The position numbers and the translations under genes are program-made. Under the pieces are notes generated by a model. It was not told the DNA's origin. It was given only the letters and a program-made list of their open reading frames with translations, and ran no database searches. Positions 1,982 through 16,390 of a stretch of DNA of 64,000 bases are shown here, in pieces. Source of the stretch: a phage; sequence record PX969468.1, one strand, 5' to 3'. How positions within the stretch are numbered: position 1 is the stretch's first letter; each line of letters starts with the position of its first letter.

Positions 1982-2275
1982 TCAAGACTTTTTAGTCTTT
2001 CTTGGAGAGCTTTTTGTTGATCTTTTCCTTTTGTGGTAGATTCCAAGTGCAGCGTTTTCTTGGGCGCACGTTTTAACAGTTCTCAGACAAGAACTTTCAG
2101 CTTTAGGCAGGTTTAACTCCCACCAACCAAGCCAGTAAAGTTCTGATTCAGACAACTGCTCAGATTCAGCCTTCCGATACAAGGCTTGCATACCTCTGAT
2201 GATATCGTCCAGAGGTGTATCGAATACAAAAGCTGTCTTATCGAATTTCTCTTTTACAGGTCTCTTAGCCATCAA
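1982..2275 (-). CDS. hypothetical protein with basic C-terminal tail
   Basis: 97 codons; C-terminus KRKRSTKSSPRKTKKS; overlaps next gene by 11 nt. Confidence 0.4.
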   Translation of the reverse strand: MMAKRPVKEKFDKTAFVFDTPLDDIIRGMQALYRKAESEQLSESELYWLGWWELNLPKAESSCLRTVKTCAQENAALGIYHKRKRSTKSSPRKTKKS

Positions 2276-2729
2276 GGTAACCCTCTATCCACGAAAAGTC
2301 AGTCTTCCATTCTGGAACTTTACTAAGCTCACGCCACTCTGCAAAGCAGTCTCTGTAATACGCCTCTGCCATACCTTTGGTGATCTTATTCACCTTAGCC
2401 AACTGATTAACTGCCTGAGCATACTTTCCACGGATATTTGCTAACCCAGGATGCACCGATGTGTGACAATCTGGGCACAACGCTATCAGTCCGACAAGCC
2501 GGATCACTCCATCTTCGAAAGTGTAAAGTTCATGACACTCCACTGGGTGTTTGCTGCCTTTACCGCCGCACACCTCACAGGTGTAGTTGGCTTCTCTATA
2601 GCACTTCTTGCGGATCTTATCCCACTCACTCTTCTTTACAGCGTTTCGGAGGTTATTATACCAAGCTGTTTCTGGGATCAGTTGCACAATAAGCCTGCGT
2701 TCAGACTTCATTAAACGTCCGTCTTCCAC
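2265..2729 (-). CDS. HNH-type zinc-finger nuclease-like protein
   Basis: 154 codons; CEVCGG...HPVECHE...CPDCH arrangement of Cys/His resembling HNH/Zn-ribbon nucleases. Confidence 0.45.
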   Translation of the reverse strand: MEDGRLMKSERRLIVQLIPETAWYNNLRNAVKKSEWDKIRKKCYREANYTCEVCGGKGSKHPVECHELYTFEDGVIRLVGLIALCPDCHTSVHPGLANIRGKYAQAVNQLAKVNKITKGMAEAYYRDCFAEWRELSKVPEWKTDFSWIEGYLDG

Positions 2730-2738
2730 GTATTCTCC

Positions 2739-2945
2739 TCATTCAAAGAAATGGGTGCGAGGACAAGATCCAGCCTCGCCTTGTTTCACAAGCTCGTAGA
2801 GCTCACCTTGACTTGTCTCATAAAGGCAAATACGTTTACCATTGTCCCGGTATACATCGACAAGATACGCTGTTTCACCTGCAAACACGACACCACAGGC
2901 CAGACATGCTGCCATGAACAAAATTGCCAACAGAAAATCTTTCAT
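2739..2945 (-). CDS. small exported protein, possible lipoprotein
   Basis: 68 codons; N-terminal hydrophobic signal-like segment LLAILFMAACLACG with Cys in lipobox-like context, short hydrophilic body with two further Cys. Confidence 0.4.
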   Translation of the reverse strand: MKDFLLAILFMAACLACGVVFAGETAYLVDVYRDNGKRICLYETSQGELYELVKQGEAGSCPRTHFFE

Positions 2946-3008
2946 GGTTAAACCCTCCTAAACATTTTATGAGGTAACAATACCACGTCCGTGTGGTTAT
3001 GTCAATGA

Positions 3009-3770
3009 TCAATCCTTAACACAAGGTCTTGGATAGCCTCTGGATAACTTCCACTCAGTTAGTGACATCTCTCCGTAGAGACAGTTTACTTCCCAAGACT
3101 TTCTTGCACAAACTGCCTCCCACCACGGATTTAGCCACTTCCTGTCGTTGAAGCACCTTAAGTTTCTTCCTTTGTTATCTCGTGCCCTCCAACAGGTATC
3201 TTTCTTAGACCAATCAATACCGGGCAGGATATTATTCTTGTGCGGGTTTGGAACTATCTTTAAAGCCTCTTCCGGGTTGGCTATCGACCATTCAATCCTA
3301 GATTTAGCCTCTTCGAAAGTGTCAAAATCTCCCAACCTAACATTTACCCTATTTATCCTTCTACTTGCCCTCCACTTACCCTCTCTTTTCAGCCATACCA
3401 CACCAGTCACTGTAGAGGTATTATTGCTTTGTACATTTTCCAAGGCTCTCTTACAGTAGTTATCCCATGGCTTCAACATTTGAAGGTTTTCTATCTTGTC
3501 TACAGGCACTCCGTTAGTAGAATTTTTCTTAGATACGATATGATCGATATGCCAAGTATCTGTGACACATCCGTAAAACATGTCAAAAATTTCCCTATGT
3601 CTGCCACGTTTAACATTTGTCAGCTTATTGTACACTTGGAAATATCCAGTCTTTTTGTTGTAGTGTCCAGCCCTATTTCCATTCCTACTGTAGCCAGGTT
3701 TCCAAAAGATTAGATCACCATCCTTGTACCAATAAGGGTAATGATCATTAAAAAAGAAATGTATCTTCAT
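3009..3770 (-). CDS. HNH homing endonuclease with AP2-like DNA-binding domain
   Basis: 253 codons; H-I-D-H...N HNH core followed by segment GVVWLKREGKWRASRRINRVNVRLGDFDTFEEA typical of AP2 domains fused to phage HNH endonucleases. Confidence 0.6.
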   Translation of the reverse strand: MKIHFFFNDHYPYWYKDGDLIFWKPGYSRNGNRAGHYNKKTGYFQVYNKLTNVKRGRHREIFDMFYGCVTDTWHIDHIVSKKNSTNGVPVDKIENLQMLKPWDNYCKRALENVQSNNTSTVTGVVWLKREGKWRASRRINRVNVRLGDFDTFEEAKSRIEWSIANPEEALKIVPNPHKNNILPGIDWSKKDTCWRARDNKGRNLRCFNDRKWLNPWWEAVCARKSWEVNCLYGEMSLTEWKLSRGYPRPCVKD

Positions 3771-3796
3771 ATCTCAACACACCTCTGGTGTAGAAA

Positions 3797-3820
3797 GGTA
3801 GGCGAGTGGCCTACCTTTTG
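3797..3820. terminator. hairpin GGTAGGC-loop-GCCTACC with flanking T/A runs downstream of endolysin gene
   Basis: 7-bp perfect stem read directly; T-run on one side. Confidence 0.35.
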
Positions 3821-3824
3821 ATCA

Positions 3825-4322
3825 TTAATCCAGAACAACACCTCCAAACTCTACAAATTTCTTAAGCAACTTGTCAATGGTTTTTGGATTTTGGTCGTAC
3901 TGGTTGTATGGGAACGAAGCCCAAATATTTGAGGTCTTACGTATAGCAGATTTAATATGACCGTTATCTATGTCTTCAAGTGCTTTACGTTCCCTGATCA
4001 ACTGGATTGCCCACTTATCCTGGCTATCTGGTCCAAAATCCGGCAACTTAAGCTGTTTTTTGTAGTGTTCCCAGTATTTGACAAGAAATTGATATTTACC
4101 GCAGGCTGTAGTTCTTTGCCCTTTTGAGTTAAACACTTTACCAGGGCGACCGTTTGCAAAAGGGTGTGTAGAAAAATCTGTAAAGATTTCAGGTTTTCCG
4201 TCCATCCCGTATGCTACAACATCGTATCCTCCACATTTGGTGGCAGGGTGGGTTGTTGTTCCCTCTGCCCAGCCAATAAGATCCAAGAAAGCTTTTCGTT
4301 GAATATTTTTATCAAGTTTCAT
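3825..4322 (-). CDS. endolysin, lambda R-type lytic transglycosylase
   Basis: 165 codons; N-terminal QRKAFLDLIGWAEGT and overall pattern recalled as resembling phage lambda R; no signal peptide. Confidence 0.6.
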   Translation of the reverse strand: MKLDKNIQRKAFLDLIGWAEGTTTHPATKCGGYDVVAYGMDGKPEIFTDFSTHPFANGRPGKVFNSKGQRTTACGKYQFLVKYWEHYKKQLKLPDFGPDSQDKWAIQLIRERKALEDIDNGHIKSAIRKTSNIWASFPYNQYDQNPKTIDKLLKKFVEFGGVVLD

Positions 4323-4464
4323 TTTTCATACTCTCCAGTTCACTCATAACGAGCCCCGATCAGCACCACTGTGTGGTGTGGCTAGGTTGCCCAGTTCATA
4401 CATCAGGGCATATGTAGGTGCAAATTGAAAACACTTATTCAATTGGCTACTAAACATACCTAAA

Positions 4465-5748
4465 TTATTCCAGCACCTCCCAAGTGTCTGGGTTAACATT
4501 TCGGACGCAGATACCGACAGGGAATTGGTAGTTATTGTCTTCTGTCCTTGCTTGATATTTGAAGGTGACAAACTTGCCGATCATTTCCTGCATTCTGTCA
4601 TAGCTACGCTCCTCGTGCGTACCTTTCATCTTCATTTTAACAACAATACCTTCCTTGTCAACACAGATAAGAACACCTTCATCATTCTTATCTTTCTCAA
4701 CGTCAATAACTTTCACCTCTGCGTCGTTGAACTTTTTCCATTTCAATGCTTCAGATGTTCGCTGACCGTACTCGTATTTACCGCAGAAATTACGCATGAT
4801 AGTACCTTCATATCCTTCGGACATGAATATACCAACAGATTCTTCGCAATGATCAACTGTGTACGCAAGCTCTGCGTCAACAACCTTGATATGGTCAAGC
4901 ATCAGAGTGGTAACGGTATCCTCTGCATCCATAAGATCCTTGCAGCGTCCAGACTCTGTTTCTGGATCCCACCACACCTTGTCGCTAGGAATATCAAAAA
5001 TGTGATACTCCAGATCGTAGCTACAGTACCCACCGTAACGCAAATCATCACGAACAGGCTCAACATCGACAGGAATATCTACCTTGTTGAAGTTTTTGTA
5101 TGTTGATAAGCCTGCCTTAATTGCGGCATGACGGCGTTTTTTATCTGCCTCATAGTCTTTATCGATCTCGGCCTGAATCTCTTCCTGTGTGCGCCACCGT
5201 TTAGCAAGAGACACTATTTTCTGCAAAGGAAGACCATGAATGTATAGTTCCCCATCAAGTTGTTTAATCCCAGTGGTAGAATGGAAAGAACGAAGTTGCT
5301 CTAAAAGCTTTCCTTGAATAGGGTAGGACTTATTACCACGGGAAATAAATTTAGGCTCACCGTTTTGGAAAACAACTAGTAGACGAAGGCCATCTAACTT
5401 ACGCAAGATCCAGCAAGGTAATTTAAGTGCCTTTCCACGCTTCAGGTAGTCATGCACCAGCATGGGTAAAAGGTCAACACCCTGCTCGCAATCTTCCATA
5501 TTTTCAACATACCCCAGACGGACTTGTTTTTCCCACTTACTGATCGCTTCCAGCTCAGCCTGTTGCTCAGCTGTAGTTTCATTGGCACGACCCACGTTCT
5601 TAGGTGTGCAGATCGTCTCTTTGTATTGCAGTTTACCATCAAGCTTGCCAAACTCTACGATAACCTTATCACCATCCGTGAATACTTTCCACTGTTGGTA
5701 GCTGCCATCTTTATTCAGTGCGTACAGTGTTGTTTTGATTTGATGCAT
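4465..5748 (-). CDS. ATP-dependent DNA ligase
   Basis: 427 codons; adenylation motif K-L-D-G (KxDG) in RKLDGLRLLVV plus downstream ligase-like motifs. Confidence 0.65.
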   Translation of the reverse strand: MHQIKTTLYALNKDGSYQQWKVFTDGDKVIVEFGKLDGKLQYKETICTPKNVGRANETTAEQQAELEAISKWEKQVRLGYVENMEDCEQGVDLLPMLVHDYLKRGKALKLPCWILRKLDGLRLLVVFQNGEPKFISRGNKSYPIQGKLLEQLRSFHSTTGIKQLDGELYIHGLPLQKIVSLAKRWRTQEEIQAEIDKDYEADKKRRHAAIKAGLSTYKNFNKVDIPVDVEPVRDDLRYGGYCSYDLEYHIFDIPSDKVWWDPETESGRCKDLMDAEDTVTTLMLDHIKVVDAELAYTVDHCEESVGIFMSEGYEGTIMRNFCGKYEYGQRTSEALKWKKFNDAEVKVIDVEKDKNDEGVLICVDKEGIVVKMKMKGTHEERSYDRMQEMIGKFVTFKYQARTEDNNYQFPVGICVRNVNPDTWEVLE

Positions 5749-6017
5749 TACTCGGCCTCTTCCTTAAAAATTTTAAACATCTCTTCTTTACTCATTACCA
5801 ACCAGTCTCCCATAAAGTCAACTAACCAATCTCCCTGGTACAAGACTAGGTTACCAAACGGCTCTACAAGCTCACACATGCGACGAAGATCTCTGGTCCG
5901 AACAGGTGACGATGTAAACACACCTGTATCAATCCACCGTTGCAGATCAGATACTGATGAAGAGCTTCCGTCAAACTGGTGTGCTTCTACAGGTTTAGCA
6001 AGATTAAATAACGGCAT
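5748..6017 (-). CDS. hypothetical protein
   Basis: 89-codon ORF tightly packed between neighbours. Confidence 0.35.
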   Translation of the reverse strand: MPLFNLAKPVEAHQFDGSSSSVSDLQRWIDTGVFTSSPVRTRDLRRMCELVEPFGNLVLYQGDWLVDFMGDWLVMSKEEMFKIFKEEAE

Positions 6018-6312
6018 TACAGTCCTCCTTATCTAATAGGTCTTTTATCGGGTAAACAAGCAGGTGTGGATCGTAATAATTTATAGTTTTATTCTGCCAC
6101 ACTATGAACTTAATTACAACTAAATTTACCACATCTTTATCTCCATGTAGTCCAACACACAGATTTGTCCATATTTTGTGGTTGAATACTTTGCTGTCGA
6201 TGTAGATCTTAGTGTCAAACTTATCCTCTATCCTGCCTATGAGTTTAACCAACTCTTTCATCTGATCCCCAAACACAGCATCGTTTTCAAGATCTCTAGA
6301 GTGCTTGTACAT
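6004..6312 (-). CDS. hypothetical protein
   Basis: 102-codon ORF; AGGTAG-type RBS upstream of start on minus strand. Confidence 0.4.
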   Translation of the reverse strand: MYKHSRDLENDAVFGDQMKELVKLIGRIEDKFDTKIYIDSKVFNHKIWTNLCVGLHGDKDVVNLVVIKFIVWQNKTINYYDPHLLVYPIKDLLDKEDCNAVI

Positions 6313-6339
6313 AACTTTCTACCTCACTTGCATACTTTC

Positions 6340-6370
6340 CTAAACAAGTAAAGCCGGGATCGCCCCGGCT
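6340..6370 (-). terminator. rho-independent terminator-like hairpin after the MazG-like gene
   Basis: stem GCCGGG/CCCGGC with 5-nt loop followed on the minus strand by T-rich tract. Confidence 0.4.
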
Positions 6371-6376
6371 ATGTTA

Positions 6377-7090
6377 TTAAATATATTCTGTTACATCCTT
6401 GAAGCTTGAAGGCTTCATAATCTTACCTTTACTGTCGAGGAATATGATAACTTTATTTCCGTTGTAGAATTCTTCTTTAGCAACAAAACCTTCATAGCGA
6501 CCATCAAAGCGTCGCTCAAGATCTTTAATCTCCAACTCGATGAGTTGTTCAACAGGCATATCTGCACTGGCACCGTGTGAATACCGCAGATGGTTGACGC
6601 GTGCAAACTTGCTGTCATTAGATTTTAGAACCTTCCGCATCATCCCGCACACATCACCGCGAAGCTGGAACAGCAAAGCTGTTGACAACTCTGCTAAGCG
6701 GTAAGCAGACGCTCTTTGCTTAGAGGTATTTTTCGCAGCGATCAGTGTATCATAAAATTCACCGATCTTAAACTTAAGACCTCGCGGATTATCAAACAGG
6801 TTTGACCACTTTTCATGGTTATCGTTAACAAGATAAGCGGCATAACTTGTGACAACATGAAGATCGCAGGCCTCTTTTAGGAGATGATCCCCACCATCAC
6901 CTTTCTCCAACTCTTCCAAAACCTCATTGAACTCTTCCTCAATGAAACTCAGCTGAAGTTCGAATGGTGTGTATGATTTTTTCACTTTAGCTGCTACACG
7001 GTTCCAGTTTTCCACCCAGTTGGCAGACCAAAGGTAGTTTTCAGGCTGGGACAGTTTTTCCAGGTTGTCGATCAGTTTAGTATTCAGCAT
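6377..7090 (-). CDS. MazG-like nucleotide pyrophosphohydrolase domain protein (tentative)
   Basis: 237 codons; segment EEEFNEVLEELEKGDGGDHLLKEACDLHVV matches the E-x2-E...E-x-x-D acidic helix pattern of MazG-type enzymes. Confidence 0.4.
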   Translation of the reverse strand: MLNTKLIDNLEKLSQPENYLWSANWVENWNRVAAKVKKSYTPFELQLSFIEEEFNEVLEELEKGDGGDHLLKEACDLHVVTSYAAYLVNDNHEKWSNLFDNPRGLKFKIGEFYDTLIAAKNTSKQRASAYRLAELSTALLFQLRGDVCGMMRKVLKSNDSKFARVNHLRYSHGASADMPVEQLIELEIKDLERRFDGRYEGFVAKEEFYNGNKVIIFLDSKGKIMKPSSFKDVTEYI

Positions 7091-7104
7091 TAAAAGGCCT
7101 CCGC

Positions 7105-7866
7105 TTACAGTTCCATAAAGTTTTCTACGATGTCAATAAATGTTTTATCAGAGAAAGCGTCAACCGCCCCGTTAAACCAAACTGGGATGCCGCGATCCTC
7201 ATATTGATAAAGGTCGCTACGTGAAATGCCGCTTCCATCTGCACTCTGCGAATCATACTTGTTTACAATCAGTAGTTTTGTGCCTTTACAAGTAGCAGGA
7301 AACAATTCCCAGTTAAAATTAATAACTGTGTTAGAACAACCCACCAGAATCACCATATCATTGCTGGTAAGAGATGTCAATAGGTCATACATGTCTGTAT
7401 ACTTAGGAGCAACCTCACCGAAGAACACCACATTGGGCTTAACCCAAGTATACTTGCCTGTATCTACCTCCGTGTATCCGATATTTTTAATTACATCATT
7501 ACCTTCAGCATCTTCGTAGGTGATTTCAGGCAAATACCCGTGGACATGTAAGATATCTTCATGTTTAACACCAGCACGCTCCAGCAAATCATCTATATTG
7601 GTTGTCAGGTTGATCACACGACCAGACCAACGTGAATACCACTCAGCGATCCGGAGATGTGCAAGGTTAGGATCAACACTGCCCAGAGCTACACGCCGTG
7701 CATTGTAAAAGTCATGCACCTTATAGTAGTTCTTGGCAAAGGTGTGGATGTTACACACCTCATCGATGCTGAAATTCTCCCACATTGCAGTTTGACCAGA
7801 ACGAAAAGTTGGGATCCCAGATTCTGCGCTCAAGCCAGCACCAGAAATAACAATAAGTCGTCGCAT
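7105..7866 (-). CDS. Sir2-family (sirtuin-like) NAD-dependent enzyme
   Basis: 253 codons; GAGLSAESGIPTFR, TTNIDDL, HVHG and VKPNVVFFGE motifs in canonical order; no Cys4 zinc ribbon evident. Confidence 0.65.
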   Translation of the reverse strand: MRRLIVISGAGLSAESGIPTFRSGQTAMWENFSIDEVCNIHTFAKNYYKVHDFYNARRVALGSVDPNLAHLRIAEWYSRWSGRVINLTTNIDDLLERAGVKHEDILHVHGYLPEITYEDAEGNDVIKNIGYTEVDTGKYTWVKPNVVFFGEVAPKYTDMYDLLTSLTSNDMVILVGCSNTVINFNWELFPATCKGTKLLIVNKYDSQSADGSGISRSDLYQYEDRGIPVWFNGAVDAFSDKTFIDIVENFMEL

Positions 7867-7874
7867 AAATGTCC

Positions 7875-8225
7875 TTAGTAGATGTTTTGGTTGATCTCTA
7901 TTCCAAACTTCTTGAATGAGTCAGCAGCAAGCATAAATTTACGAGCCGCTGATGGGTTAGAAGTATGCACGAAAATCTTCACGTTGTCAACTACAGGAGG
8001 CTTACCAAATACAAATTTTTCCTCCAACATAGATAGGCAATCGTACCCTTCAAATACCTCTCCAAGATCGTTGTCCATGTGCCACTCAGAAACGCGCCTG
8101 TAGAGCTTTCCCTTATCGTTAATAAAATCCATAAACTCAGAGGAATTCTTTAGCCAAATAGCATCGGGGATCCCATAATTTGACGGATCTCTCAAGTCAT
8201 CCAGCCACACGATCAACTTCTTCAT
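7875..8225 (-). CDS. hypothetical protein, possible receiver-like (flavodoxin-fold) domain
   Basis: 116 codons; alternating hydrophobic strand/acidic loop pattern (LIVWLDD...SEWHMDND...KIFVHTSNP); assignment is pattern-based only. Confidence 0.3.
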   Translation of the reverse strand: MKKLIVWLDDLRDPSNYGIPDAIWLKNSSEFMDFINDKGKLYRRVSEWHMDNDLGEVFEGYDCLSMLEEKFVFGKPPVVDNVKIFVHTSNPSAARKFMLAADSFKKFGIEINQNIY

Positions 8226-9157
8226 TGCATATAGTCCTCGTTGTGGAAATAGCAGTCAAGTATCTCACGGCGTTCCTGCTCTAGGAGGCAGTTCCACACA
8301 TCTTCTGTGTAATTGTTACGAATGAAGTTTACCATGCCGTAAAACTCTTCGTCAATACGTTTAAAGATATCATCATCCCAAATCTTCCAAGCTTTACCCC
8401 TCATTACGGCCTTCCGTGCCAAATAGTATGGAGACTTGATCTTCAGCTGCAGATCATAAGGGTAGTAAGGCTTACGAATCATATACCCTTCACCTCTTGT
8501 TTCTGCAGCTAATTCTTTTGCATAGCTGAACGGAATTTCACGCACAGTGTGAGGACGTTTTGCACCAAGGTATTTGGCAATCCCATCTAAAGCTGCTTCT
8601 GGTAGCATTATTCCAGAATCATTATATCTGCAACCTATCAAATATGCGCCATGATCTTCCTGAACAATATGCGGATCTGAAGGGTGACAAATTTCAAACA
8701 TGAATGTCATGTTTTCATGGCCCATAACCTTCTTGATAAGATCTAAATTACCACATTGCTCCTGGATGGTTTCCTTTGCAAGGTTACAATATGGAGAATC
8801 AAGAGACCCGGTTGTTGAAAACAATAGTTCACCTTTATGAGATGATACCACACCAAGGAATCCGTTCTTTTTCTCTACCGCCGTCACAAGTTTATTGTCA
8901 GGCAGGTTGGTGGAGTTTTCTCCCAAATTAAACACTTTTGTGAAGGGCCATGCCACAACATTTCCTTCATTACCGACAACAATGCCTCGGCACTCTAGTA
9001 AACGCGGAGACAAATGCCATAAATTGTTGTAGAATACTTTTCTGGCATATTTGTAGATCTTTAATCCAAGATCTGGGTAATATCTGCTGGTTACAAGACC
9101 TTTGTCAACCAGGTCGTCTGCATTAAAATACTTCATCATACATTCCTCATTTGTCAT
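8222..9157 (-). CDS. RNA ligase-type covalent nucleotidyltransferase
   Basis: 311 codons; motif I K-x-N-G (EKKNGF), motif IV-like GEGYMIRKP, motif V-like LKIKSPYY; distinct from the DNA ligase at 4465..5748. Confidence 0.55.
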   Translation of the reverse strand: MTNEECMMKYFNADDLVDKGLVTSRYYPDLGLKIYKYARKVFYNNLWHLSPRLLECRGIVVGNEGNVVAWPFTKVFNLGENSTNLPDNKLVTAVEKKNGFLGVVSSHKGELLFSTTGSLDSPYCNLAKETIQEQCGNLDLIKKVMGHENMTFMFEICHPSDPHIVQEDHGAYLIGCRYNDSGIMLPEAALDGIAKYLGAKRPHTVREIPFSYAKELAAETRGEGYMIRKPYYPYDLQLKIKSPYYLARKAVMRGKAWKIWDDDIFKRIDEEFYGMVNFIRNNYTEDVWNCLLEQERREILDCYFHNEDYMQ

Positions 9158-9200
9158 TTTGTCCCTTTATTCTGCCACACAAATAACCTGGTGTCAACAC

Positions 9201-9229
9201 TTGAAATTAACAAAACAGTTAGGTATACT
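9201..9229 (+). promoter_or_regulatory. sigma70-like promoter (TTGAAA-17-TATACT) for the kinase operon
   Basis: hexamers and 17-nt spacer read directly in the divergent intergenic region. Confidence 0.45.
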
Positions 9230-9257
9230 CTCATTAAAATTAAAACGGAGAGTTACT

Positions 9258-9668
9258 ATGTCTAAAATGCTATATATCGTGCGTGGTCTACCAGGGTCTG
9301 GCAAATCAACACTGGCAAATGCGCTATCTTTAGAAGGTCTGTATCCACATTTTGAGAACGATATGTTCTGGTACGACGATGACGGCAATTACAATTGGGA
9401 TGCAAGTAAAGTAACACTTGCAGCAAAATGGTGCAAAGATAACGTAGAAGATATGATGCGTATGGGCTACGACCGTATCGTGGTAAGTAATACGTTTACA
9501 AAAGAAAAATATGTGCAAGAATATATTGACATGGCGATCAGTCATGGATATAGTTATACCGTGATCGTGGTTGAAAACCGCCATGGTAATAAAAGCATTC
9601 ATGATGTTCCAGACAGGGTTGTGGATCGTATGGAACGCCAGCTTAAAAACTGCATTAAACTTAAATGA
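9258..9668 (+). CDS. P-loop kinase, polynucleotide kinase-like
   Basis: 136 codons; Walker A GLPGSGKST near N-terminus; GGAG RBS 7 nt upstream; the track ORF starts upstream but the Met at 9258 has the RBS. Confidence 0.55.
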   Translation: MSKMLYIVRGLPGSGKSTLANALSLEGLYPHFENDMFWYDDDGNYNWDASKVTLAAKWCKDNVEDMMRMGYDRIVVSNTFTKEKYVQEYIDMAISHGYSYTVIVVENRHGNKSIHDVPDRVVDRMERQLKNCIKLK

Positions 9669-9675
9669 GGAATGT

Positions 9676-10230
9676 ATGAAATACTTTGTAACAAGCGACA
9701 CACACTTTCTCCACCAGCGGGTAATGGAGTTCGACTCATGTCAAAAACACAGATCTCAGTATGATCACAATCTTGACAGTATGAATGCGGGAATCATCAC
9801 CAAGTGGAACTCTGTTGTGTCACCTGCAGACACTGTGTTTCACTTGGGGGATATTGCGTGCACTAATGATAAGAATATCAACAAATTGCTTCCAGATGTT
9901 CTAAATATGTTGAACGGACATATTATTCTTGTTCGTGGTAACCATGACACAAGGACGACTGTCAGAATTATGAAAGAGTTCGGTCATGAGGTTGTAGATT
10001 ATTACGAGCTTCGCCACAACAAGAATTTGATCTGTATGAGCCATTACCAGTTTGCAAAGTGGAACAGAAAGCCTCACGGATCAGTCCAACTGTTCGGTCA
10101 TGCTCACGGAACCACACAGCAGTTGTTTGGCAGGCAGTTTGATGTCGGTTGGGATGTGTGGGGGAGACTCTTACCATTAGAAGAGGCATACCGTATTGCA
10201 ATGAGTCTTGCTATTGACAGCGGGGAGTAA
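9676..10230 (+). CDS. calcineurin-like metallophosphoesterase
   Basis: 184 codons; SDTHF, GDI, GNHD and GHAH motifs in canonical order. Confidence 0.6.
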   Translation: MKYFVTSDTHFLHQRVMEFDSCQKHRSQYDHNLDSMNAGIITKWNSVVSPADTVFHLGDIACTNDKNINKLLPDVLNMLNGHIILVRGNHDTRTTVRIMKEFGHEVVDYYELRHNKNLICMSHYQFAKWNRKPHGSVQLFGHAHGTTQQLFGRQFDVGWDVWGRLLPLEEAYRIAMSLAIDSGE

Positions 10231-10277
10231 TCCCTGCTATTTTAAAGAAAATTGCCACACAAGGAGAATCAGGAGAT

Positions 10278-10628
10278 ATGAAAGATGAGGATAAGCTGCT
10301 ATATCTTAAAGTCCCCCTTGAAATACTGTCTATGTCAAAAGTTTTGAATGGCACAACTGGGGAGGTTGTTGTTCTTGACTTATATGACAAGATCGTATAC
10401 TGCTACCTGCACAACTGGTATAAGCTTGGAGAAAATTCACGCTTCACACCCAGCACCAGGAAAATTGCAGCAGATGTTGGGATAAAGAAAACAAAAGCAG
10501 CAGCGTGCGTTAAAACTTTAGAATGTGCAGGAGTGGTTGAAATATCCACACAAGGGAGAGGTAAAAGATGCACATTTTCCAAAGTTTTGCCACCAGAAGA
10601 AGTTATTCGAATGTCAACAACTGGTTAG
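10278..10628 (+). CDS. putative DNA-binding protein (winged-helix/HTH-like)
   Basis: 116 codons; segment TRKIAADVGIKKTKAAACVKTLECAGVVEI has helix-turn-helix character; GGAG RBS. Confidence 0.35.
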   Translation: MKDEDKLLYLKVPLEILSMSKVLNGTTGEVVVLDLYDKIVYCYLHNWYKLGENSRFTPSTRKIAADVGIKKTKAAACVKTLECAGVVEISTQGRGKRCTFSKVLPPEEVIRMSTTG

Positions 10629-10702
10629 ACCAGTAAAAACTTAAACATCTGTACTATAAGGATTTGTATGTTTTATGTTCACTCTGGAGCAGAAGTTAGT
10701 AA

Positions 10703-10783
10703 CTGTCCGTGATACGGACACTACTGTCCGTCACGCGGACACATCTGCCCGTAATACGGACACTAACTGTCCGTGATACGGAC
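10703..10783. repeat. four tandem 17-bp palindromic sites TGTCCGT-N3-ACGGACA spaced 21-22 bp apart
   Basis: copies at 10703, 10724, 10745, 10767; first and fourth are perfect palindromes, second and third have 1-2 substitutions. Confidence 0.85.
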
Positions 10784-10826
10784 ACATAAAGAATATAACT
10801 AAAATAACTAAATAATAAAAAATAAA

Positions 10827-10886
10827 AGATCTAGTACTTATGGTACTAAAGTACATATACTTAACTTATGTAGAATATACTAGATC
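10827..10886. repeat. AT-rich region with inverted repeat GATCTAGTA...TACTAGATC containing two GATC sites
   Basis: 9-bp arms about 40 bp apart read directly; internal GTAC-rich palindromic segments. Confidence 0.7.
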
Positions 10887-10919
10887 CTAAGTACCATGTT
10901 TTAAATTTATTACTTATTA

Positions 10920-11285
10920 TGGGTAGTGTCGGCCCTTCATTGGCACTCGCCTACGAGGGGCGAGATGCCGGGCCTCCATAGTGCACACAATAACAGAAGT
11001 GCATACATGCAGGACTGTTAACATGTGTGGGAACGAAGCGATAGCGCAGGCCAAAGGCCGAGCACTAATGTGGACCACCGACGAAAGCTTGCCAGCGCCG
11101 GAAGGAGTCGGTTGAGAGCCTCCCGCGCGAGTTCGGATAAAGTTTATGTGTGGAAACTGACAAGAAGGACCCTAAATCGCTCCACAGCTATATAAACTAT
11201 ACCAAGTAAGGCAATCGCACCAGTTTGATAGAAAAGCTCGTTACAAAGCGATACAGTGAGTTTTTCTATAACTTGAAGAGGAGGC
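10920..11285 (+). other. GC-rich structured noncoding segment (candidate ncRNA)
   Basis: no ORF of 60 codons or more on either strand across 10629..11289; nested complementary stems such as GGCCC...GGGCC, CGCC...GGCG, GGCC-AAA-GGCC, GGAG...CTCC. Confidence 0.3.
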
Positions 11286-11289
11286 TGCT

Positions 11290-11868
11290 ATGAGTTCACG
11301 CAAAGATGCCAGTGAAAAGATTGCAAAACGTTATCAGAATGAAGAACAGATGGAGAAAACTTTCAAGTGGAAGCCAGGTTTCCAGCGTAATCATTCTAAC
11401 GCTCGTGATCGTAAGCATCCTGATAAGTGGCTAACACCGCCAAATGATGGCATGCAGGTTGGTGATGAGAAGGAGCTATCACCTGGAAAAGATGGCAACT
11501 ACATTCGCACTAAGGACGCTAGTCCAAAGGATGACAGCTATCTTGTAGATAAGGTTCTTAATGGTATTGATGTAGATGTTGACACTACACGGAACTTTTT
11601 TCTTGGGTGGTATCGCACAGGTTTTTTCGACATCAAGGCCATTCGTCGTGTTTGTGATATTAAAAAGTCTGCATATGATGACGACTCGTTACATCGCACA
11701 CTGAGACAATATTCAGAAAGATATGGTCATCCGGTTATCACTCTTGACGATGTTAACGAAGTGATGTATCATGCAGAGGTTGTTGCAGGCAGATTTGGTG
11801 ATGCATATCTTGATATCCTTTCTGCAAACGATGAGGTAATGTTGAATAAGATTTACTACGAACGTTGA
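11290..11868 (+). CDS. hypothetical protein
   Basis: 192 codons; strong RBS GAGGAGG; N-terminal half charged/low complexity. Confidence 0.5.
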   Translation: MSSRKDASEKIAKRYQNEEQMEKTFKWKPGFQRNHSNARDRKHPDKWLTPPNDGMQVGDEKELSPGKDGNYIRTKDASPKDDSYLVDKVLNGIDVDVDTTRNFFLGWYRTGFFDIKAIRRVCDIKKSAYDDDSLHRTLRQYSERYGHPVITLDDVNEVMYHAEVVAGRFGDAYLDILSANDEVMLNKIYYER

Positions 11869-11878
11869 GGAGAGCTTA

Positions 11879-12067
11879 ATGAACAATCCGGTAGCAAAGA
11901 ATTGTAATAAGTTCAACAAGTCTGCAATTCACACTGACAGGAAAAAGAGCTGGTCACCGGACATTGACGAGGAGCTGGAGAATTACTTTGAAGATCTGGT
12001 TACCAATGCAGGCGAGGTTGCGATTAAAGAATACGCAGACAGGAGGGATAAGGCCGGAATCTGTTGA
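11879..12067 (+). CDS. hypothetical small protein
   Basis: 62 codons; RBS GAGGAG upstream. Confidence 0.4.
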   Translation: MNNPVAKNCNKFNKSAIHTDRKKSWSPDIDEELENYFEDLVTNAGEVAIKEYADRRDKAGIC

Positions 12068-12092
12068 CAAAAATAATGTTACCTGATAAGAT
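12064..12092 (+). promoter_or_regulatory. sigma70-like promoter TTGACA-17-TAAGAT with TG extension
   Basis: read directly; precedes 12144 gene. Confidence 0.5.
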
Positions 12093-12143
12093 CTGCAATA
12101 TGATGTGATACAATTTTAACTTACGAGGTCTACAGGTAATGCT

Positions 12144-12386
12144 ATGTTTAAGGTTAAGCTCGTTTTCCGTTCCATGAATGAGGATTATTTAGAAGATGAA
12201 GGTGAATTTCGTGCACTAGATGATGCAATAGATTTTGCCAACGACTTAGCTTGTATGAATACGGGTTATGGTTTATGTTGTTGGGATGGTGGTGTTCAGA
12301 TTGGTGATAGCAAGATCTTCTACTTCTACCCTGAGCCCGATAACAAACAAATTAAGTATGTTTTATTTATTTGTGCTTTACAATGA
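12144..12386 (+). CDS. hypothetical small protein
   Basis: 80 codons; weak RBS. Confidence 0.35.
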   Translation: MFKVKLVFRSMNEDYLEDEGEFRALDDAIDFANDLACMNTGYGLCCWDGGVQIGDSKIFYFYPEPDNKQIKYVLFICALQ

Positions 12387-12674
12387 GGTTGTTTTCGTGT
12401 ATCATGATGAATATCCAATTTAAAGATGAGTTTGATGGCTTTATCTCCGGATGCTTTGAAACAGGGTTCGGAGAAGGCTGAGTTACCCTTAGAGGGCTTG
12501 ATAGTGCACCACACTTAAAATGGTAGGGGCAGCCAGCACATGACGATGTGACCCCAGCCAACCTGTAATAAGGTCGAGCCAGAGCGCGGTAATGGGTATC
12601 TGGTAACCCACTCGTTGGGTCTTGTTGGTCCAGGACGCTGGGCAAGTCGCAGGGAACACCACCCTGCGGCGAAC
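12387..12674 (+). other. GC-rich noncoding segment with a 26-codon mini-ORF and stable stems (candidate leader or sRNA)
   Basis: overlapping ORFs on both strands indicate absence of stops rather than coding; lies between a gene end and a consensus promoter. Confidence 0.25.
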
Positions 12675-12703
12675 TTGACAATCAGTATTTGCCGTGATAA
12701 AAT
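12675..12703 (+). promoter_or_regulatory. sigma70-like promoter TTGACA-17-TAAAAT with TG extension
   Basis: perfect -35, 17-nt spacer, near-consensus -10; 29 nt upstream of GGAGG RBS and ATG at 12732. Confidence 0.6.
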
Positions 12704-12731
12704 CCACCTATCACGTGATAATGGAGGAAAC

Positions 12732-13070
12732 ATGGCGGATACAACTAAAAAGCGTCGCCGTAGAGGCAGACCTCTGAAAGAGGAGTCCAACGCCATTCAG
12801 CTAGAGAAGAACATTCTTGATATGAAGGAATCTTTTATAGCGATGGTTCCAGAAGCTCACAAAGTTTTAAGAGAGCTGATGTTGGATCCGAAAACCAAGC
12901 AAAATATTCGTCAAAGCATTGCAGAGTATGTCCTTGATAAGGCAGACCGAATGCAGGAAGAATATGATGAGATGTTTGGTGAAGAGGAAGAGGTGGTAGT
13001 AGAAGAGGCTGAAAAACCAGCACCTTTTATGCCATTTACCACAGAGATACAGCCTGTTGGCAATAGTTAA
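12732..13070 (+). CDS. small AT-hook-like DNA-binding protein with acidic C-terminal tail
   Basis: 112 codons from the Met with GGAGG RBS; KKRRRRGRPLKEE (RGRP core) near N-terminus; C-terminus EEYDEMFGEEEEVVVEEAEK. Confidence 0.5.
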   Translation: MADTTKKRRRRGRPLKEESNAIQLEKNILDMKESFIAMVPEAHKVLRELMLDPKTKQNIRQSIAEYVLDKADRMQEEYDEMFGEEEEVVVEEAEKPAPFMPFTTEIQPVGNS

Positions 13071-13079
13071 AATATTTTC

Positions 13080-13108
13080 TTGACAAACTTTGCTTAACAG
13101 TGTAATAT
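13080..13108 (+). promoter_or_regulatory. sigma70-like promoter TTGACA-17-TAATAT upstream of tRNA cluster
   Basis: read directly; first tRNA begins about 60 nt downstream. Confidence 0.55.
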
Positions 13109-13166
13109 TATAAACATGGTCTCCCACCTTTTCTGGCGGCTCAGGTGTAAAAGAAAGCCACCCAGT

Positions 13167-13241
13167 GCCCTGTTAGCTTAGTGGATAAAGCAGCGGCCTT
13201 CTAAGCCGTTGACACTGGTTCGAGTCCAGTACGGGGTGCCA
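13167..13241 (+). tRNA. tRNA-Arg (anticodon TCT)
   Basis: hand-folded cloverleaf: acceptor GCCCTGT/ACGGGGT (two G-U), D-arm GCTT/AAGC, anticodon loop CTTCTAA, T-arm ACTGG-TTCGAGT-CCAGT, encoded CCA. Confidence 0.6.
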
Positions 13242-13245
13242 AATT

Positions 13246-13332
13246 GGGGAGTTATCCCGTAGAGGTAGCGGTGTAGACTGTAAATCTATTGTCATTGCGA
13301 CTCGGGTGGTTCGACTCCACCACTCCCCACCA
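13246..13332 (+). tRNA. tRNA-Tyr (anticodon GTA), long variable arm
   Basis: acceptor GGGGAGT/ACTCCCC, anticodon stem GTAGA/TCTAT with loop CTGTAAA, T-arm GGTGG-TTCGACT-CCACC, encoded CCA. Confidence 0.6.
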
Positions 13333-13446
13333 AATTTATATTTTTAAATGCATAAATCATACAGATAATGACATTGATATTTATCGTCGTTTATACTAGT
13401 CACTAACTGCTCGAAAATCAGTGTCATTATCAGTGTAATTTATAAA

Positions 13447-13537
13447 GGAGGGTAGGGAGCAATGGTGCTCAAGCGGTCTTGAAAACCGTCCCGTTGAGGA
13501 TGACTCGATGATGGTTCGATTCCATTACTCTCCGCCA
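13447..13537 (+). tRNA. tRNA-Ser (anticodon TGA), long variable arm
   Basis: acceptor GGAGGGT/ACTCTCC, anticodon stem-loop GCGGT-CTTGAAA-ACCGT, T-loop TTCGATT, encoded CCA. Confidence 0.55.
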
Positions 13538-13635
13538 CATTGTTGACCTTGTAATTAAGCGAAAGCCGGAAGCAGAACCGGATTATCAAATGTTACAGTC
13601 GTCATCGCCGACTAGCCACATGGTCAACATATTGC

Positions 13636-13735
13636 GCTAGGTAAGCCCTTTGGCAAGGGCGAGGATTTTTAATCCTGAAAATAGACGAGGTAGTCGTTGA
13701 ATACATAGGTGGTTCGATTCCATCACCTAGCACCT
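13636..13735 (+). pseudogene. atypical tRNA-like element (Lys-TTT-like 5' half, ~30-nt insert, no encoded CCA)
   Basis: perfect 7-bp acceptor GCTAGGT/ACCTAGC, D-arm GCCC/GGGC, anticodon-like loop TTTTTAA, T-arm GGTGG-TTCGATT-CCATC, but about 30 nt between anticodon arm and T-arm and CCT instead of CCA. Confidence 0.3.
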
Positions 13736-13738
13736 TTT

Positions 13739-13814
13739 GCTGATGTAGCACAATTGGCAGTGCAATTGATTTGTAATCAATAGGTTGCAGGTTCAAGTCC
13801 TGCCATCAGCACCA
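13739..13814 (+). tRNA. tRNA-Thr (anticodon TGT)
   Basis: perfect acceptor GCTGATG/CATCAGC, D-arm GCAC/GTGC, anticodon stem ATTGA/TCAAT loop TTTGTAA, T-arm GCAGG-TTCAAGT-CCTGC, encoded CCA. Confidence 0.7.
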
Positions 13815-13815
13815 T

Positions 13816-13890
13816 GGCCCTGTAGCTGGAAGGTTCAAGCAAGCGACTCATAATCGCCAGACGGTGGTTCAATTCCACCCAGGGCCACCA
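13816..13890 (+). tRNA. tRNA-Met or Ile2 (anticodon CAT)
   Basis: perfect acceptor GGCCCTG/CAGGGCC, anticodon loop CTCATAA, T-arm GGTGG-TTCAATT-CCACC, encoded CCA. Confidence 0.6.
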
Positions 13891-13901
13891 AATAATAAAT
13901 A

Positions 13902-13978
13902 CTCCGCGTAGCTCAGCTTGGTAGAGCGCCTGATTTGGGATCAGGAGGTCGAGTGTTCGAATCACTCCGTGGAGACCA
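13902..13978 (+). tRNA. tRNA-Pro (anticodon TGG)
   Basis: acceptor CTCCGCG/CGTGGAG, canonical D-arm GCTC-AGCTTGGTA-GAGC, anticodon stem CCTGA/TCAGG loop TTTGGGA, T-arm GAGTG-TTCGAAT-CACTC, encoded CCA. Confidence 0.7.
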
Positions 13979-14024
13979 CCTTTAGTTATACTTTAAATAT
14001 ATACACACAAAAGGAACCTTTAAA

Positions 14025-14294
14025 ATGTATACACTTAAAATTGTAGAACGTGTAAATCCAACCCATACTTTAGATCTTCGTGACGATTTCAACCCTCTTG
14101 CTGTAAATCTTCGAGAGTCGTATCATGAACTAAGCTGCGATGCAGTTGTGGTCTTCTTTGAAGACAACTCTGAAGGGGCAGTAGCTTGTGTTGTTGATAG
14201 CGAGCAGAAGTTTTATATTTACAGAGATGTGGATGCTTACTTGATGAATGAGAATGCGGTTACTGTCAGAATCATCCACCGAGTGCCTCGATAA
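14025..14294 (+). CDS. hypothetical protein
   Basis: 89 codons; followed by terminator. Confidence 0.45.
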   Translation: MYTLKIVERVNPTHTLDLRDDFNPLAVNLRESYHELSCDAVVVFFEDNSEGAVACVVDSEQKFYIYRDVDAYLMNENAVTVRIIHRVPR

Positions 14295-14347
14295 GTATTA
14301 GTCTCCTTTTAGTTAGTTTCGATCTATTTAGGTTACTCAATTTTAAC

Positions 14348-14383
14348 CCGCCCCGTTAGCTGTATAGCTGCGGGGTTTTTTCG
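14348..14383 (+). terminator. rho-independent terminator
   Basis: stem CCCCG/CGGGG enclosing a palindromic loop, followed by TTTTTT. Confidence 0.55.
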
Positions 14384-14399
14384 TTTCTGGAGCCTTAAA

Positions 14400-14798
14400 A
14401 TGATTTCAGTCTTAACATTGATGAGTAAATACAGAGGGATCATAAAAGGTTTAGTTTTTGCAGCGGCTATAGGCATGGCTTATCTTGGGGCCGTGTATTG
14501 GTTTAACTCTAAGCTCAATGATGCTTATCAGGAAGGTGTGTCAGCAACAGAGTTAAAGTGGGAACGGATCCTTGACCAACAACAAAAGCAGGCCGACAAA
14601 ATTAAAATGGGCCACGCAGAGGAGGTTAAAAACCTTGAAAAATCTCTTTCTGATCTACAGGATAAATTAAATATGGCTGAGAAGGCAGGTAAAGAAAAGC
14701 AGATTATCTACCTCCAATCTCCTGAAGGTAAGAAGTCAACACTTCCTGATCAGCTAATAGATATTTATAATGAGAGTATCAATCAGGAGGTTCGATGA
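14400..14798 (+). CDS. i-spanin (Rz-like inner-membrane spanin)
   Basis: 132 codons; N-terminal TM segment GLVFAAAIGMAYLGAVYWF then coiled-coil-like periplasmic domain; stop overlaps start of next gene. Confidence 0.6.
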   Translation: MISVLTLMSKYRGIIKGLVFAAAIGMAYLGAVYWFNSKLNDAYQEGVSATELKWERILDQQQKQADKIKMGHAEEVKNLEKSLSDLQDKLNMAEKAGKEKQIIYLQSPEGKKSTLPDQLIDIYNESINQEVR

Positions 14799-15082
14799 GA
14801 GTTACTGCACTGGTTGTTTTGTGCTTGTTATTGTGTGGGTGTGCAACCAGCGTTGAGAGAGAATACAAGATTGACCCTCCGGATGTAGGAAGGTTGATTG
14901 TTAAACCTCCCGAGGGTGCTATGAAACCACCTGCTAAAGCTATCCCTTTGAAGAAAGGTGCGCCAGATGCGGTGAATTCTGGCATTATGAGGGATAATAA
15001 CCTGTCTTGTAGTAATGATAGAGCTAAATTGATCATTTTGCAAGACTATATAAGAACACTGTTTCCAAAGGAGAGAGGTTAA
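14795..15082 (+). CDS. o-spanin (Rz1-like outer-membrane lipoprotein)
   Basis: 95 codons; signal peptide with lipobox L-C-G-C, proline-rich mature part. Confidence 0.6.
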   Translation: MRVTALVVLCLLLCGCATSVEREYKIDPPDVGRLIVKPPEGAMKPPAKAIPLKKGAPDAVNSGIMRDNNLSCSNDRAKLIILQDYIRTLFPKERG

Positions 15083-15507
15083 TGTCTAAGATTTACGGAC
15101 CGTGTTCTGAAAAGCAGAAGATGATCCTAGAGAACGATGCAGATATTTTGGTGATCGGAGGTGCAGCTGGGTCTGGAAAGTCGTTCCTCTTGCAGCTAAT
15201 GCCACTTAAAATTATTGATGACCCACACAGCTCTGTGGTTATGTTCCGAAGAACAACTCCACAGTTGGAAGGTGAGGGTGGGCTATGGCCTAAAGCAGTA
15301 GCTATTTACAGTGATCTGCCTGAAAACATTAAACCAAAGTTCAGAGAGAAGGATCATAAGTTTATTTTTCCACGGTTTGATCCGAGCACTGGCAAGTGGG
15401 ACAGGAGCAAAAAAGGGGCCGTTGTAAAATACTGCCACATGGAGTATGTCCAAGATAAGCTTAACCATCAAGGCCTTGAGTACACCATGGTTTGCTTCGA
15501 TGAGGGT
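15082..15507 (+). CDS. terminase large subunit, exon 1 (ATPase domain)
   Basis: Walker A GGAAGSGKS and Walker B VCFDEG; reading frame stops at TAA immediately after DEG. Confidence 0.65.
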
Positions 15508-16390
15508 TAATTTGTAGCTCTCGTAAAACCTCCCTAATTGCGGGGAAATCTTTATTATTGACACCACCAACCTGTTATGGTAACATGATAGAGGCTTCGA
15601 AGAGAGATCGAAGGTATGGTAACAGTGTGTTGATTTAGATAATCCGCAGCGAAGCATCCGAGAGGATGAACGTTCAACGACTAGTCGAAAGACGTAGAAT
15701 CAAGCGATTCGAAACGGGAGGGTGAATGTGTAATACTAAAAAATGTATGGATTGCCAAAGAGTTCTACCTCTTGATGATTTCTTTTTATCATCTAAGAGC
15801 CAGGATGGATACTCAGGTACATGCAAGGAATGCTATATGTACTACAGGAAGAATGGATCTCGTAGAAACAAAAATATGGTTAAGAGAGATGATGCAGCAT
15901 CTTTTATTCAAGACTTACTGAAGAAAGGTGAGCTTTTTGAATGTAAATCTTGTCATGAAAGTATGCTTGCTGATAGTTTTTACACAAAACGCGACTATGG
16001 TAAAGTGTATCTAGTCACGAACAGGTGTAAGATGTGTGAAAAGTTTTATCAGATTGAGAAGAAATTTCACATAACAAAAGATGAATACTATCGTCTACTC
16101 TCAGATCAAGATCATAAGTGTGCAATCTGTAGAATATCTCTTGATGAGTATAAGACTCAAGGATATAGAGATTTCTTTTGTGTTGATCATGACCATAAAA
16201 CTGGTGCTGTAAGAGGGTTGCTTTGTGATAAATGCAACAGGGCTTTAGGTTTCTTCCAAGAGGATGAGGAAACCATTCTTAGAGCGGCAGAGTATTTACA
16301 CATTCATAAGATATAGTCTGGTCTGCATGGAGACATGCAGCTGCCTGAAAATGGCGGGGCAAGACTAGCGACCTTGCCCGAACATAAACG
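15508..16390 (+). mobile_element. group I-like intron carrying an HNH endonuclease gene, inserted in the terminase large-subunit gene
   Basis: P/Q/R-like core elements AATTGCGGGGA (15536..15546), AATCCGCAGC (15641..15650), GTTCAACGACTAG (15672..15684); possible guide GCTCTC (15517..15522) pairing with exon end GAGGGT; ends in G; 3' boundary could be 16387 or 16390. Confidence 0.55.
15726..16316 (+). CDS. HNH homing endonuclease (intron-encoded)
   Basis: 196 codons; GGGAGGG RBS; several CxxC pairs and HNH core CVDHDHKTGAVRGLLCDKCNRALG. Confidence 0.7.
   Translation: MCNTKKCMDCQRVLPLDDFFLSSKSQDGYSGTCKECYMYYRKNGSRRNKNMVKRDDAASFIQDLLKKGELFECKSCHESMLADSFYTKRDYGKVYLVTNRCKMCEKFYQIEKKFHITKDEYYRLLSDQDHKCAICRISLDEYKTQGYRDFFCVDHDHKTGAVRGLLCDKCNRALGFFQEDEETILRAAEYLHIHKI

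Follow-up and report, generated by a model that had tools for sequence, protein, structure and literature searches.

The window analysed here, a 64,000-nucleotide (nt) stretch of phage DNA (sequence record PX969468.1), carries its lysis genes far apart, and we propose which of its genes supplies the holin. In the reading that we consider probable, the sequence encodes an ordinary holin-endolysin-spanin pathway with its genes in three places, in which an 88-amino-acid (88-aa) protein encoded among the tail-fibre genes would be the holin and a 104-aa protein encoded close by would be an accessory. The window comes from a Vequintavirus (rV5-like E. coli myophages with a genome of ~138 kb): a megablast search with positions 3000-16000 matched 748 phage records, and the best of these, with 94-96% identity over the full length, are Vequintavirus. 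It corresponds to the reverse complement of roughly open reading frames (ORFs) 96 to 22 of rV5, and its gene map was taken from the annotated relatives SophiaRose and 241Ecol014PP. The genes in question are the following.

3825-4322, minus strand: endolysin of the lambda R / P2 K type (lytic transglycosylase fold), 165 aa, identified by PDB and PHROGs matches and by the annotation of relatives
14400-14798, plus strand: i-spanin, 132 aa, with an N-terminal transmembrane domain (TMD) and a periplasmic coiled coil (phrog_4297 'Rz-like spanin', E = 1e-48)
14795-15082, plus strand: o-spanin, 95 aa, an outer-membrane lipoprotein (phrog_1267 'Rz-like spanin', E = 4e-22)
52852-53166, plus strand: 104-aa membrane-tethered coiled-coil protein, rV5 ORF31 (phrog_5345, E = 1e-48)
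54311-54577, plus strand: 88-aa protein, orthologue of rV5 ORF29, phrog_1322; best holin candidate by profile match and by the gene context of its homologues

The 88-aa protein is a member of phrog_1322, a family that PHROGs labels 'membrane protein': its residues 1-87 align with profile positions 1-86 of 87 at an E value of 2.7e-32. Word-indexed protein searches returned close relatives only. A profile search over 1.84 billion representatives found 60 cluster representatives of the family with lengths of 65-160 aa, and all 58 representatives match phrog_1322 too. Conservation is concentrated in the core S-[HQ]-[ST]-K-x-W-x-N and in two helices, while the charged tails vary; the C-terminal tail of the window protein is hydrophilic and charged (RWGCQHPDHVKNEEQKA). 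An AlphaFold2 model calculated from an alignment of 58 sequences contains helices at residues 2-11, 22-43 and 49-73, with a mean predicted local distance difference test score (pLDDT) of 75 and values of 75-90 in the core. We call the protein putatively membrane-embedded from the PHROGs family label and the modelled helical hairpin only, and its charge distribution predicts an N-in/C-in topology.

Homologues of this protein are found in lysis cassettes. The Pseudomonas Mu-like phage Bise contains, in this order, Mor, a VanY/Peptidase_M15_4 endolysin (phrog_2649, E = 1.6e-32), a phrog_1322 member, a 165-aa transmembrane (TM) protein that matches Rz weakly (phrog_1152, E = 3.5e-4), further genes, TerS and TerL; the endolysin gene overlaps the phrog_1322 gene by 4 nt. 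With a pattern built on a narrow family alignment, a scan of 185,579 species genomes identified 80 phrog_1322 loci, nearly all in Betaproteobacteria (Neisseria, Chromobacterium, Nitrosospira, Iodobacter); since they cluster phylogenetically and are largely Mu-like, these are not 80 independent observations, and counts among them overstate independence. Among 71 loci, 56 encode a peptidoglycan hydrolase in the first upstream ORF that reaches 120 aa. Nine Pfam families account for these hydrolases: Amidase_3 (20 loci), GH108 (14), Amidase_2 (11), CHAP (5), VanY (2), and Phage_lysozyme, M15_3, GH19 and M15_2 with a single locus each. On the other side of the phrog_1322 gene, 57 of the 80 loci contain an ORF for an o-spanin-like lipoprotein no more than 1.3 kb downstream, and 42 contain an i-spanin-like ORF. 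At 23 loci the phrog_1322 gene directly adjoins that of the hydrolase; in 17 of these, the 500 nt upstream are free of any other TM ORF, and the hydrolases at the 23 loci have mostly non-hydrophobic N-termini. Two unrelated metagenome contigs likewise encode a Peptidase_M15_4 protein followed directly by a phrog_1322 family member.

The second gene of the proposed pair also has relatives in these cassettes. The 104-aa gene starts with GTG behind a strong Shine-Dalgarno sequence (GAGGAGGT). Its product begins with MELD, continues with a TMD at residues 5-25 (Kyte-Doolittle value 2.08) and the K/R-rich segment NQWHTKWKGISKR, and ends in a coiled coil of ~79 aa, which by the positive-inside rule is predicted to be cytoplasmic (N-out/C-in). 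In the prophage loci, an unnamed family of single-TMD coiled-coil proteins is encoded 0.3-1.6 kb downstream of the phrog_1322 gene, after the spanins. A local hidden Markov model (HMM) detects this family in 64 of 82 lysis loci, Bise included. When 2378 ORFs were searched with an HMM of the gp31-like proteins (those related to rV5 ORF31), members of this prophage coiled-coil family were the sole non-self matches. HHalign comparison of the gp31-like alignment with the mixed prophage coiled-coil alignment was ambiguous (47%); splitting off the Neisseriaceae-type subfamily gave a decisive probability of 96.1% (E = 3.5e-9) over 85 columns that include the TMD. Since homologues of the 88-aa and 104-aa genes thus occur together in endolysin-spanin cassettes, the pair in the window is most likely a displaced lysis module. 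A 92-aa ORF of Bise (4734-5012 of the locus) was considered as an o-spanin and rejected, as the local HMM places it in the single-TMD coiled-coil family (E = 1e-32); its phrog_462 'lipoprotein' label looks misleading.

We propose from its predicted architecture that the 104-aa protein is a lysis accessory of the antiholin or releasin kind. The releasin gp25 of phage Mu is a protein of 99 aa with N-out/C-in topology, four periplasmic residues and a cytoplasmic domain of 73 aa, and it is not a holin (Chamblee et al. 2022, PMC9239132). Both proteins are ~100 aa long and share, after about four residues in the periplasm, an N-terminal TMD with basic residues at the membrane junction and ~75 aa of helical domain in the cytoplasm; in Mu-like elements the homologues of the 104-aa protein are encoded, as gp25 is in Mu, a few genes downstream of the endolysin. 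The two systems differ in the partner: the endolysin served by gp25 has a signal-anchor-release (SAR) domain with a basic N-terminus, whereas the window endolysin has no SAR segment. Homology to gp25 was sought and rejected. The 104-aa protein has no Pfam match to DUF2730 at E values up to 1, and HHalign comparison with gp25/DUF2730 gave probabilities of 0.4% for the single sequence and 3% for the prophage subfamily; the 104-aa family as a whole reached 18% (E = 1.3e-3), collinear over 88 columns. Because homology is not demonstrable, we claim shared architecture only.

The original prediction, an earlier reading of the same sequence, had described a lambda R-type endolysin lacking a signal peptide, and this description is correct. 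A phmmer search of the PDB aligned residues 4-162 with residues 4-153 of lambda lysozyme, that is over the full length (1AM7, E = 6.4e-35; 3D3D, E = 8.6e-35), and the protein matches phrog_90 'endolysin' (E = 4e-51). As in lambda R and P2 K, to which it is homologous over its full length, the catalytic glutamate is conserved: WAEGT (E20) aligns with WSEGT (E19) of lambda. Identity amounts to 51% with the rV5 lysin and 57% with P2 gpK. The N-terminus (MKLDKNIQRKAFLDLIGWAEG) is hydrophilic, and neither this sequence nor the hydropathy scan revealed a signal peptide or SAR segment in the protein. Without an export signal or SAR domain, the enzyme is soluble and depends on a holin. The window carries a minority allele of this gene: only 20 phage records contain it at 99% identity or more, and the flanking DNA is ~95% identical to that of other Vequintavirus. 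The lysin gene looks as if it had been swapped like a cassette, with its first and last codons conserved. Among the genes of rV5 that lie outside the window, ORF2 (Table S3), which adjoins rIIA, encodes a second peptidoglycan hydrolase, a SleB-like 'cell wall hydrolase' (Pfam Hydrolase_2).

The spanin pair stands just before the terminase gene on the strand opposite to the endolysin, as had been claimed. In addition to their PHROGs matches, the i-spanin has a TMD at residues 14-35 according to the hydropathy scan and is annotated as i-spanin in relatives, and the o-spanin (MRVTALVVLCLLLCGC...) contains the lipobox LLCGC and a further periplasmic cysteine at residue 72. The two genes overlap by 4 nt, and the o-spanin stop codon abuts the large terminase gene, so that one gene ends and the next begins at position 15082. 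The spanin family of rV5 was catalogued by Kongari et al. 2018.

15082-15510, plus strand: first exon of the intron-split large terminase gene, from the annotation of relatives

The rV5 paper describes the terminase gene in three segments (PMC3606486). In the window, an EndoVII/HNH-type ORF (15726-16316) lies inside the split gene.

To search for membrane proteins, we scanned the hydropathy of all six frames across the window and set the result against a tiling of the on-strand genes. Apart from the spanins, three candidates were left: 2739-2945, 52852-53166 and 54311-54577, the last of them below the standard threshold. Among the small ORFs of the 64-kb window that lie on the coding strand and overlap no other gene, the scan found no further one with a TM-like segment; the remaining TM-positive ORFs were dismissed because they lie on the non-coding strand or within larger genes. 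The scan found no recognised holin near the endolysin or the spanins, in agreement with the original prediction. That prediction had also named small TM proteins at 52852-53166 and 54311-54577; both ORFs exist, and the second fails the hydropathy threshold. Its choice of the TM/coiled-coil protein after Tfa as holin candidate has gained a link to lysis by homology, while the architecture of that protein is that of an accessory or regulator and atypical for a holin. The stronger candidate appears to be the other ORF that it had named, 54311-54577, which we rank above 52852-53166 because its family holds the slot between endolysin and spanins in other loci. The claim that no small membrane-protein gene adjoins the endolysin is not fully accurate, since the gene at 2739-2945 is parted from it by an HNH gene alone.

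2739-2945, minus strand: 68-aa protein, orthologue of rV5 ORF90, with an N-terminal signal anchor or signal peptide and a 45-aa domain with two cysteines
3009-3770, minus strand: HNH homing-endonuclease gene between the endolysin and 68-aa genes, from the annotation of relatives

The 68-aa protein has a hydrophobic N-terminus of 19 residues (Kyte-Doolittle value 2.74 at residues 4-22) and matches phrog_4641, a PHROG without assigned function. A sigma-70-like promoter site precedes its gene (3005-2977, TTGACA-17-TATTGT); our promoter and terminator scans are consensus matches and carry little weight. The HNH gene is missing from this position in rV5, where ORF89 and ORF90 are adjacent on the map; ORF90 lies 64 nt from the lysin gene and is annotated with a promoter, P90, and as 'contains transmembrane domain'. 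Judged by its sequence, the 68-aa protein could act in the periplasm in lysis or exclusion and is unlikely to be a holin. In its architecture it is reminiscent of T4 RI or Spackle, small phage factors of the periplasm.

How might these proteins cooperate? Our sequence analysis shows the identity of the endolysin and the spanins, the family memberships and the gene context of the homologues; from that context we infer the roles of the 88-aa and 104-aa proteins, and the formation of holes and the timing of expression, that of the endolysin included, are inferred as well. The soluble transglycosylase of the lambda R / P2 K type, expressed from the leftward operon, would build up harmlessly in the cytoplasm; this operon may be called early on account of its gene content and its sigma-70-type promoters. 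The time of lysis would be set by the two-gene membrane module within the late tail-fibre cluster. As the holin, the two-helix 88-aa protein would gather in the inner membrane and then open holes through which the endolysin is released, while the 104-aa protein, with its N-out/C-in coiled coil, may tune or assist it in the manner of an antiholin or releasin. The Rz/Rz1-type spanin pair would then remove the outer membrane.

Such an arrangement has parallels. In the record of phage T7, gene 3.5 encodes the amidase, the holin gene 17.5 comes after tail-fibre gene 17, and the terminase genes enclose those of the spanins (18.5/18.7). As in T7, the endolysin gene of the window is located among genes of DNA metabolism, the candidate holin gene after a tail-fibre gene and the spanin genes by the terminase gene; unlike in T7, the endolysin is a transglycosylase of the lambda R type instead of an amidase, and a second membrane protein is encoded beside the candidate holin. 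In T4, the holin gene t directly follows gene 38, which parallels the place of the candidate after fibre genes. Lambda and P2 encode the endolysin beside the holin (S or Y), whereas the window endolysin gene is isolated among ligase and HNH genes. With class II holins such as S68 of phage 21 (two TMDs, N-in/C-in), the 88-aa protein shares its small size, two-helix hairpin, charged C-terminal tail and helices that are rich in Gly, Ala and Ser and weakly hydrophobic, and homologues next to the endolysin. It differs from them in that its family stands outside the curated holin families and is mostly found with soluble, not SAR, endolysins.

Several observations weigh against the proposed role of the 88-aa protein. 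Its maximal Kyte-Doolittle value over 17 residues is 1.27, below the standard threshold, and its orthologue ORF29 is absent from the TMHMM/Phobius census of rV5; these weakly hydrophobic helices explain why TM-based holin hunts passed the protein over. The window protein has no match in Pfam. Weak matches to DUF2644 were confined to four of the 58 distant members, and none of 77 prophage and phage members of the family matches this model; neither the 88-aa nor the 104-aa family is covered by a Pfam or NCBIfam model. The public names in both the 88-aa and 104-aa families are all 'hypothetical' or 'membrane protein'. Homology to the T7 holin gp17.5 was rejected, as HHalign gave a probability of 0.4% and Pfam no match. 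Most phrog_1322 loci belong to a single clade (Neisseriaceae and other Betaproteobacteria) and to related Mu-like elements. Gene context does not tell which of the two proteins forms the hole. In the phage studied here, the 88-aa and 104-aa genes are linked to tail-fibre genes and not to lysis genes: the 88-aa gene sits on the structural strand, with gaps of 11 nt to the preceding and 9 nt to the following tail-fibre gene, and in the window it is separated by 50 kb from the endolysin gene and by 39 kb from the spanin genes, so that linkage to lysis genes is seen in its homologues alone. So placed, the pair may have a role in fibre assembly or superinfection exclusion.

A different division of labour is conceivable, although we hold it to be unlikely: the 104-aa and 88-aa proteins together could constitute an unrecognised two-component system for the export or release of soluble endolysin, common to Vequintavirinae and many Mu-like prophages. 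If true, this would answer what releasin-like proteins do in phages with non-SAR endolysins, a question left by the work on Mu.

Part of the picture was known before. In the description of rV5, gp89 was named as the lysin, a holin homologue was not found, and ORF129 was put forward as a putative holin since it was the sole protein with two TMDs according to both TMHMM and Phobius (Kropinski et al. 2013, PMC3606486). The annotation of LL12 by a group specialised in lysis accepted no holin (2019, PMC6658697), and the reports on Gotham and KPP-1 likewise contain none. The paper on the Certrevirus CB7 noted that the spanin genes of CB7, rV5 and PVP-SE1 adjoin the large terminase gene and that there is no lysis cassette (2020, PMC7344957). 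Since both the dispersal and the missing holin have been published for rV5-like phages, the bare finding is not new. What is new is the connection of ORF29 and ORF31 (phrog_1322 and phrog_5345) with lysis, which the rV5, LL12 and CB7 papers do not make.

These papers also bear on the rival that the orthologue of rV5 ORF129 is the holin and that the genes embedded in the tail-fibre cluster do something else. We rate this as rather improbable. ORF129 encodes 78 aa and is located ~18 kb past the left end of the window, among small genes of the leftward unit. Besides the concordant TMHMM and Phobius calls, the proposal has in its favour two strongly hydrophobic TMDs (residues 10-28 and 40-58, Kyte-Doolittle values above 2.5), a highly charged C-terminal tail (KNIRKEKKESRDGDRT) and conservation in 116 Vequintavirus records. 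Against this, ORF129 is found in a lysis-gene context nowhere, its homologues were detected within the genus only, and its family, phrog_10061, is a PHROG without assigned function. The basic loop RRKVK would favour an N-out/C-out topology, unlike that of class II holins. ORF129 also belongs to a leftward unit with sigma-70-type promoters, whereas confirmed holins are late genes (PMC9239132), and the later LL12 annotation took up no holin (PMC6658697). Should experiments refute the 88-aa/104-aa pair, ORF129 would be the main remaining candidate.

The proposal that the 88-aa protein is the holin, with the 104-aa protein as its accessory, would matter beyond one genome. The rV5-like phages (Vequintavirinae and relatives) are among the commonest coliphage isolates, LL12 is a component of a commercial product according to its announcement (PMC6658697), and the holin sets lysis time and burst size. 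In the literature on rV5-like phages, the holin has been 'not identified' since 2013, and the candidate pair is specific and cheaply testable. Tying phrog_1322 and phrog_5345, with their prophage relatives, to lysis cassettes would improve the annotation of several hundred phage and prophage records.

The tail-fibre locus in which the pair resides contains these further features.

52256-52840, plus strand: Tfa, tail-fibre assembly protein (Pfam Caudo_TAP, E = 8e-12; phrog_136, E = 2e-36), just upstream of the 104-aa gene
53176-53197, plus strand: weak terminator-like hairpin after the 104-aa gene, found by consensus scan and not evidence of function
53253-54299, plus strand: second short-tail-fibre paralogue, from ORF translation and annotation

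The Tfa and 104-aa genes lie between two short-tail-fibre paralogues, at 51201-52241 (346 aa) and 53253-54299 (348 aa). The locus recurs in other genera with a different composition. Seunavirus GEC_vB_MG and Certrevirus KaOmega encode Tfa, a homologue of the 104-aa protein, a polytopic membrane protein of ~155 aa, a homologue of the 88-aa protein and a tail fibre, and the polytopic gene has an ATGA overlap. The same triad follows Tfa in the Aeromonas Plateaulakevirus phage 2L372D (NC_048769). In that genome, the ORF between the gp31-like and phrog_1322 genes, for a polytopic membrane protein of 146 aa (3520-3960 of the locus), is unannotated. A tblastn search of the window with the Seunavirus polytopic protein (phrog_7451, ~150 aa) revealed no homologue; its slot is filled by the second short-tail-fibre paralogue, which suggests that a duplication or insertion split the membrane-protein module. 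The tail module of the Phapecoctavirus-like phage Eryne contains a homologue of the 88-aa protein only.

This genomic setting speaks for a non-lytic pair, which would help to assemble fibres or the baseplate at the membrane or would exclude superinfecting phages, with the holin elsewhere, possibly in the form of the 68-aa protein. Membrane-protein genes do stand by receptor-binding genes in T5 (llp) and in phi80 and N15 (cor), in large virulent myophages the pair is always found among tail-fibre genes, and the annotator of one relative named the 88-aa protein 'tail fibre assembly protein similar to phi92 gp144'. We nevertheless consider a non-lytic function highly unlikely. Members of both families are encoded in Mu-like lysis cassettes, at a great distance from any tail-fibre gene, and Menderavirus and related contigs encode a phrog_1322 family member alone, within the replication module, so that the family is not tied to tail fibres. 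Neither protein is among the virion proteins identified by mass spectrometry in rV5. As for the 68-aa protein, the adjacency of its gene to the lysin gene in rV5 is offset by a signal-peptide-like N-terminus, an early sigma-70-like promoter and matches outside the genus that are weak and marginal.

A reversal of roles, with the 104-aa protein as a single-TMD holin and the 88-aa protein as its antiholin or unrelated to lysis, could draw on the strongly hydrophobic TMD and strong ribosome-binding site of the former, on the presence of its homologous family in most lysis cassettes and on the existence of single-TMD holins such as T4 T. It is very doubtful all the same, because the predicted N-out/C-in topology with four external residues and a helical cytoplasmic domain is that of Mu gp25, a non-holin (PMC9239132), the homologue in prophage cassettes is located past the spanins and not beside the endolysin, the gene was not found in the Eryne tail module that retains phrog_1322, and tblastn detects the 104-aa protein in only 224 phage records, as against 374 for the 88-aa protein.

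The overall layout of the window is as follows.

1-9157, minus strand: DNA-metabolism unit
~9200-62000, plus strand: unit that includes the structural genes
3' of ~62000, minus strand: short block after the structural unit

Several genes of the homing-endonuclease type are present: in addition to the HNH gene at 3009-3770 and the ORF at 15726-16316 within the terminase gene, a further HNH gene (2265-2729) lies downstream of the former. Ahead of the spanin genes, a cluster of seven tRNA-like genes (13167-13978) comprises Arg-tct, Tyr-gta, Ser-tga, Thr-tgt, Met-cat, Pro-tgg and one odd prediction of 99 nt with a four-base anticodon (13636-13734), which appears as 'tRNA-Stop(tta)' in the annotation of one relative. 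Finally, many records with Campylobacter jejuni labels (MG0656xx: 'Campylobacter phage A142', 'C2' and others) share 95-96% identity with this Vequintavirus over 13 kb; contamination or mis-assignment is the probable source of these labels.

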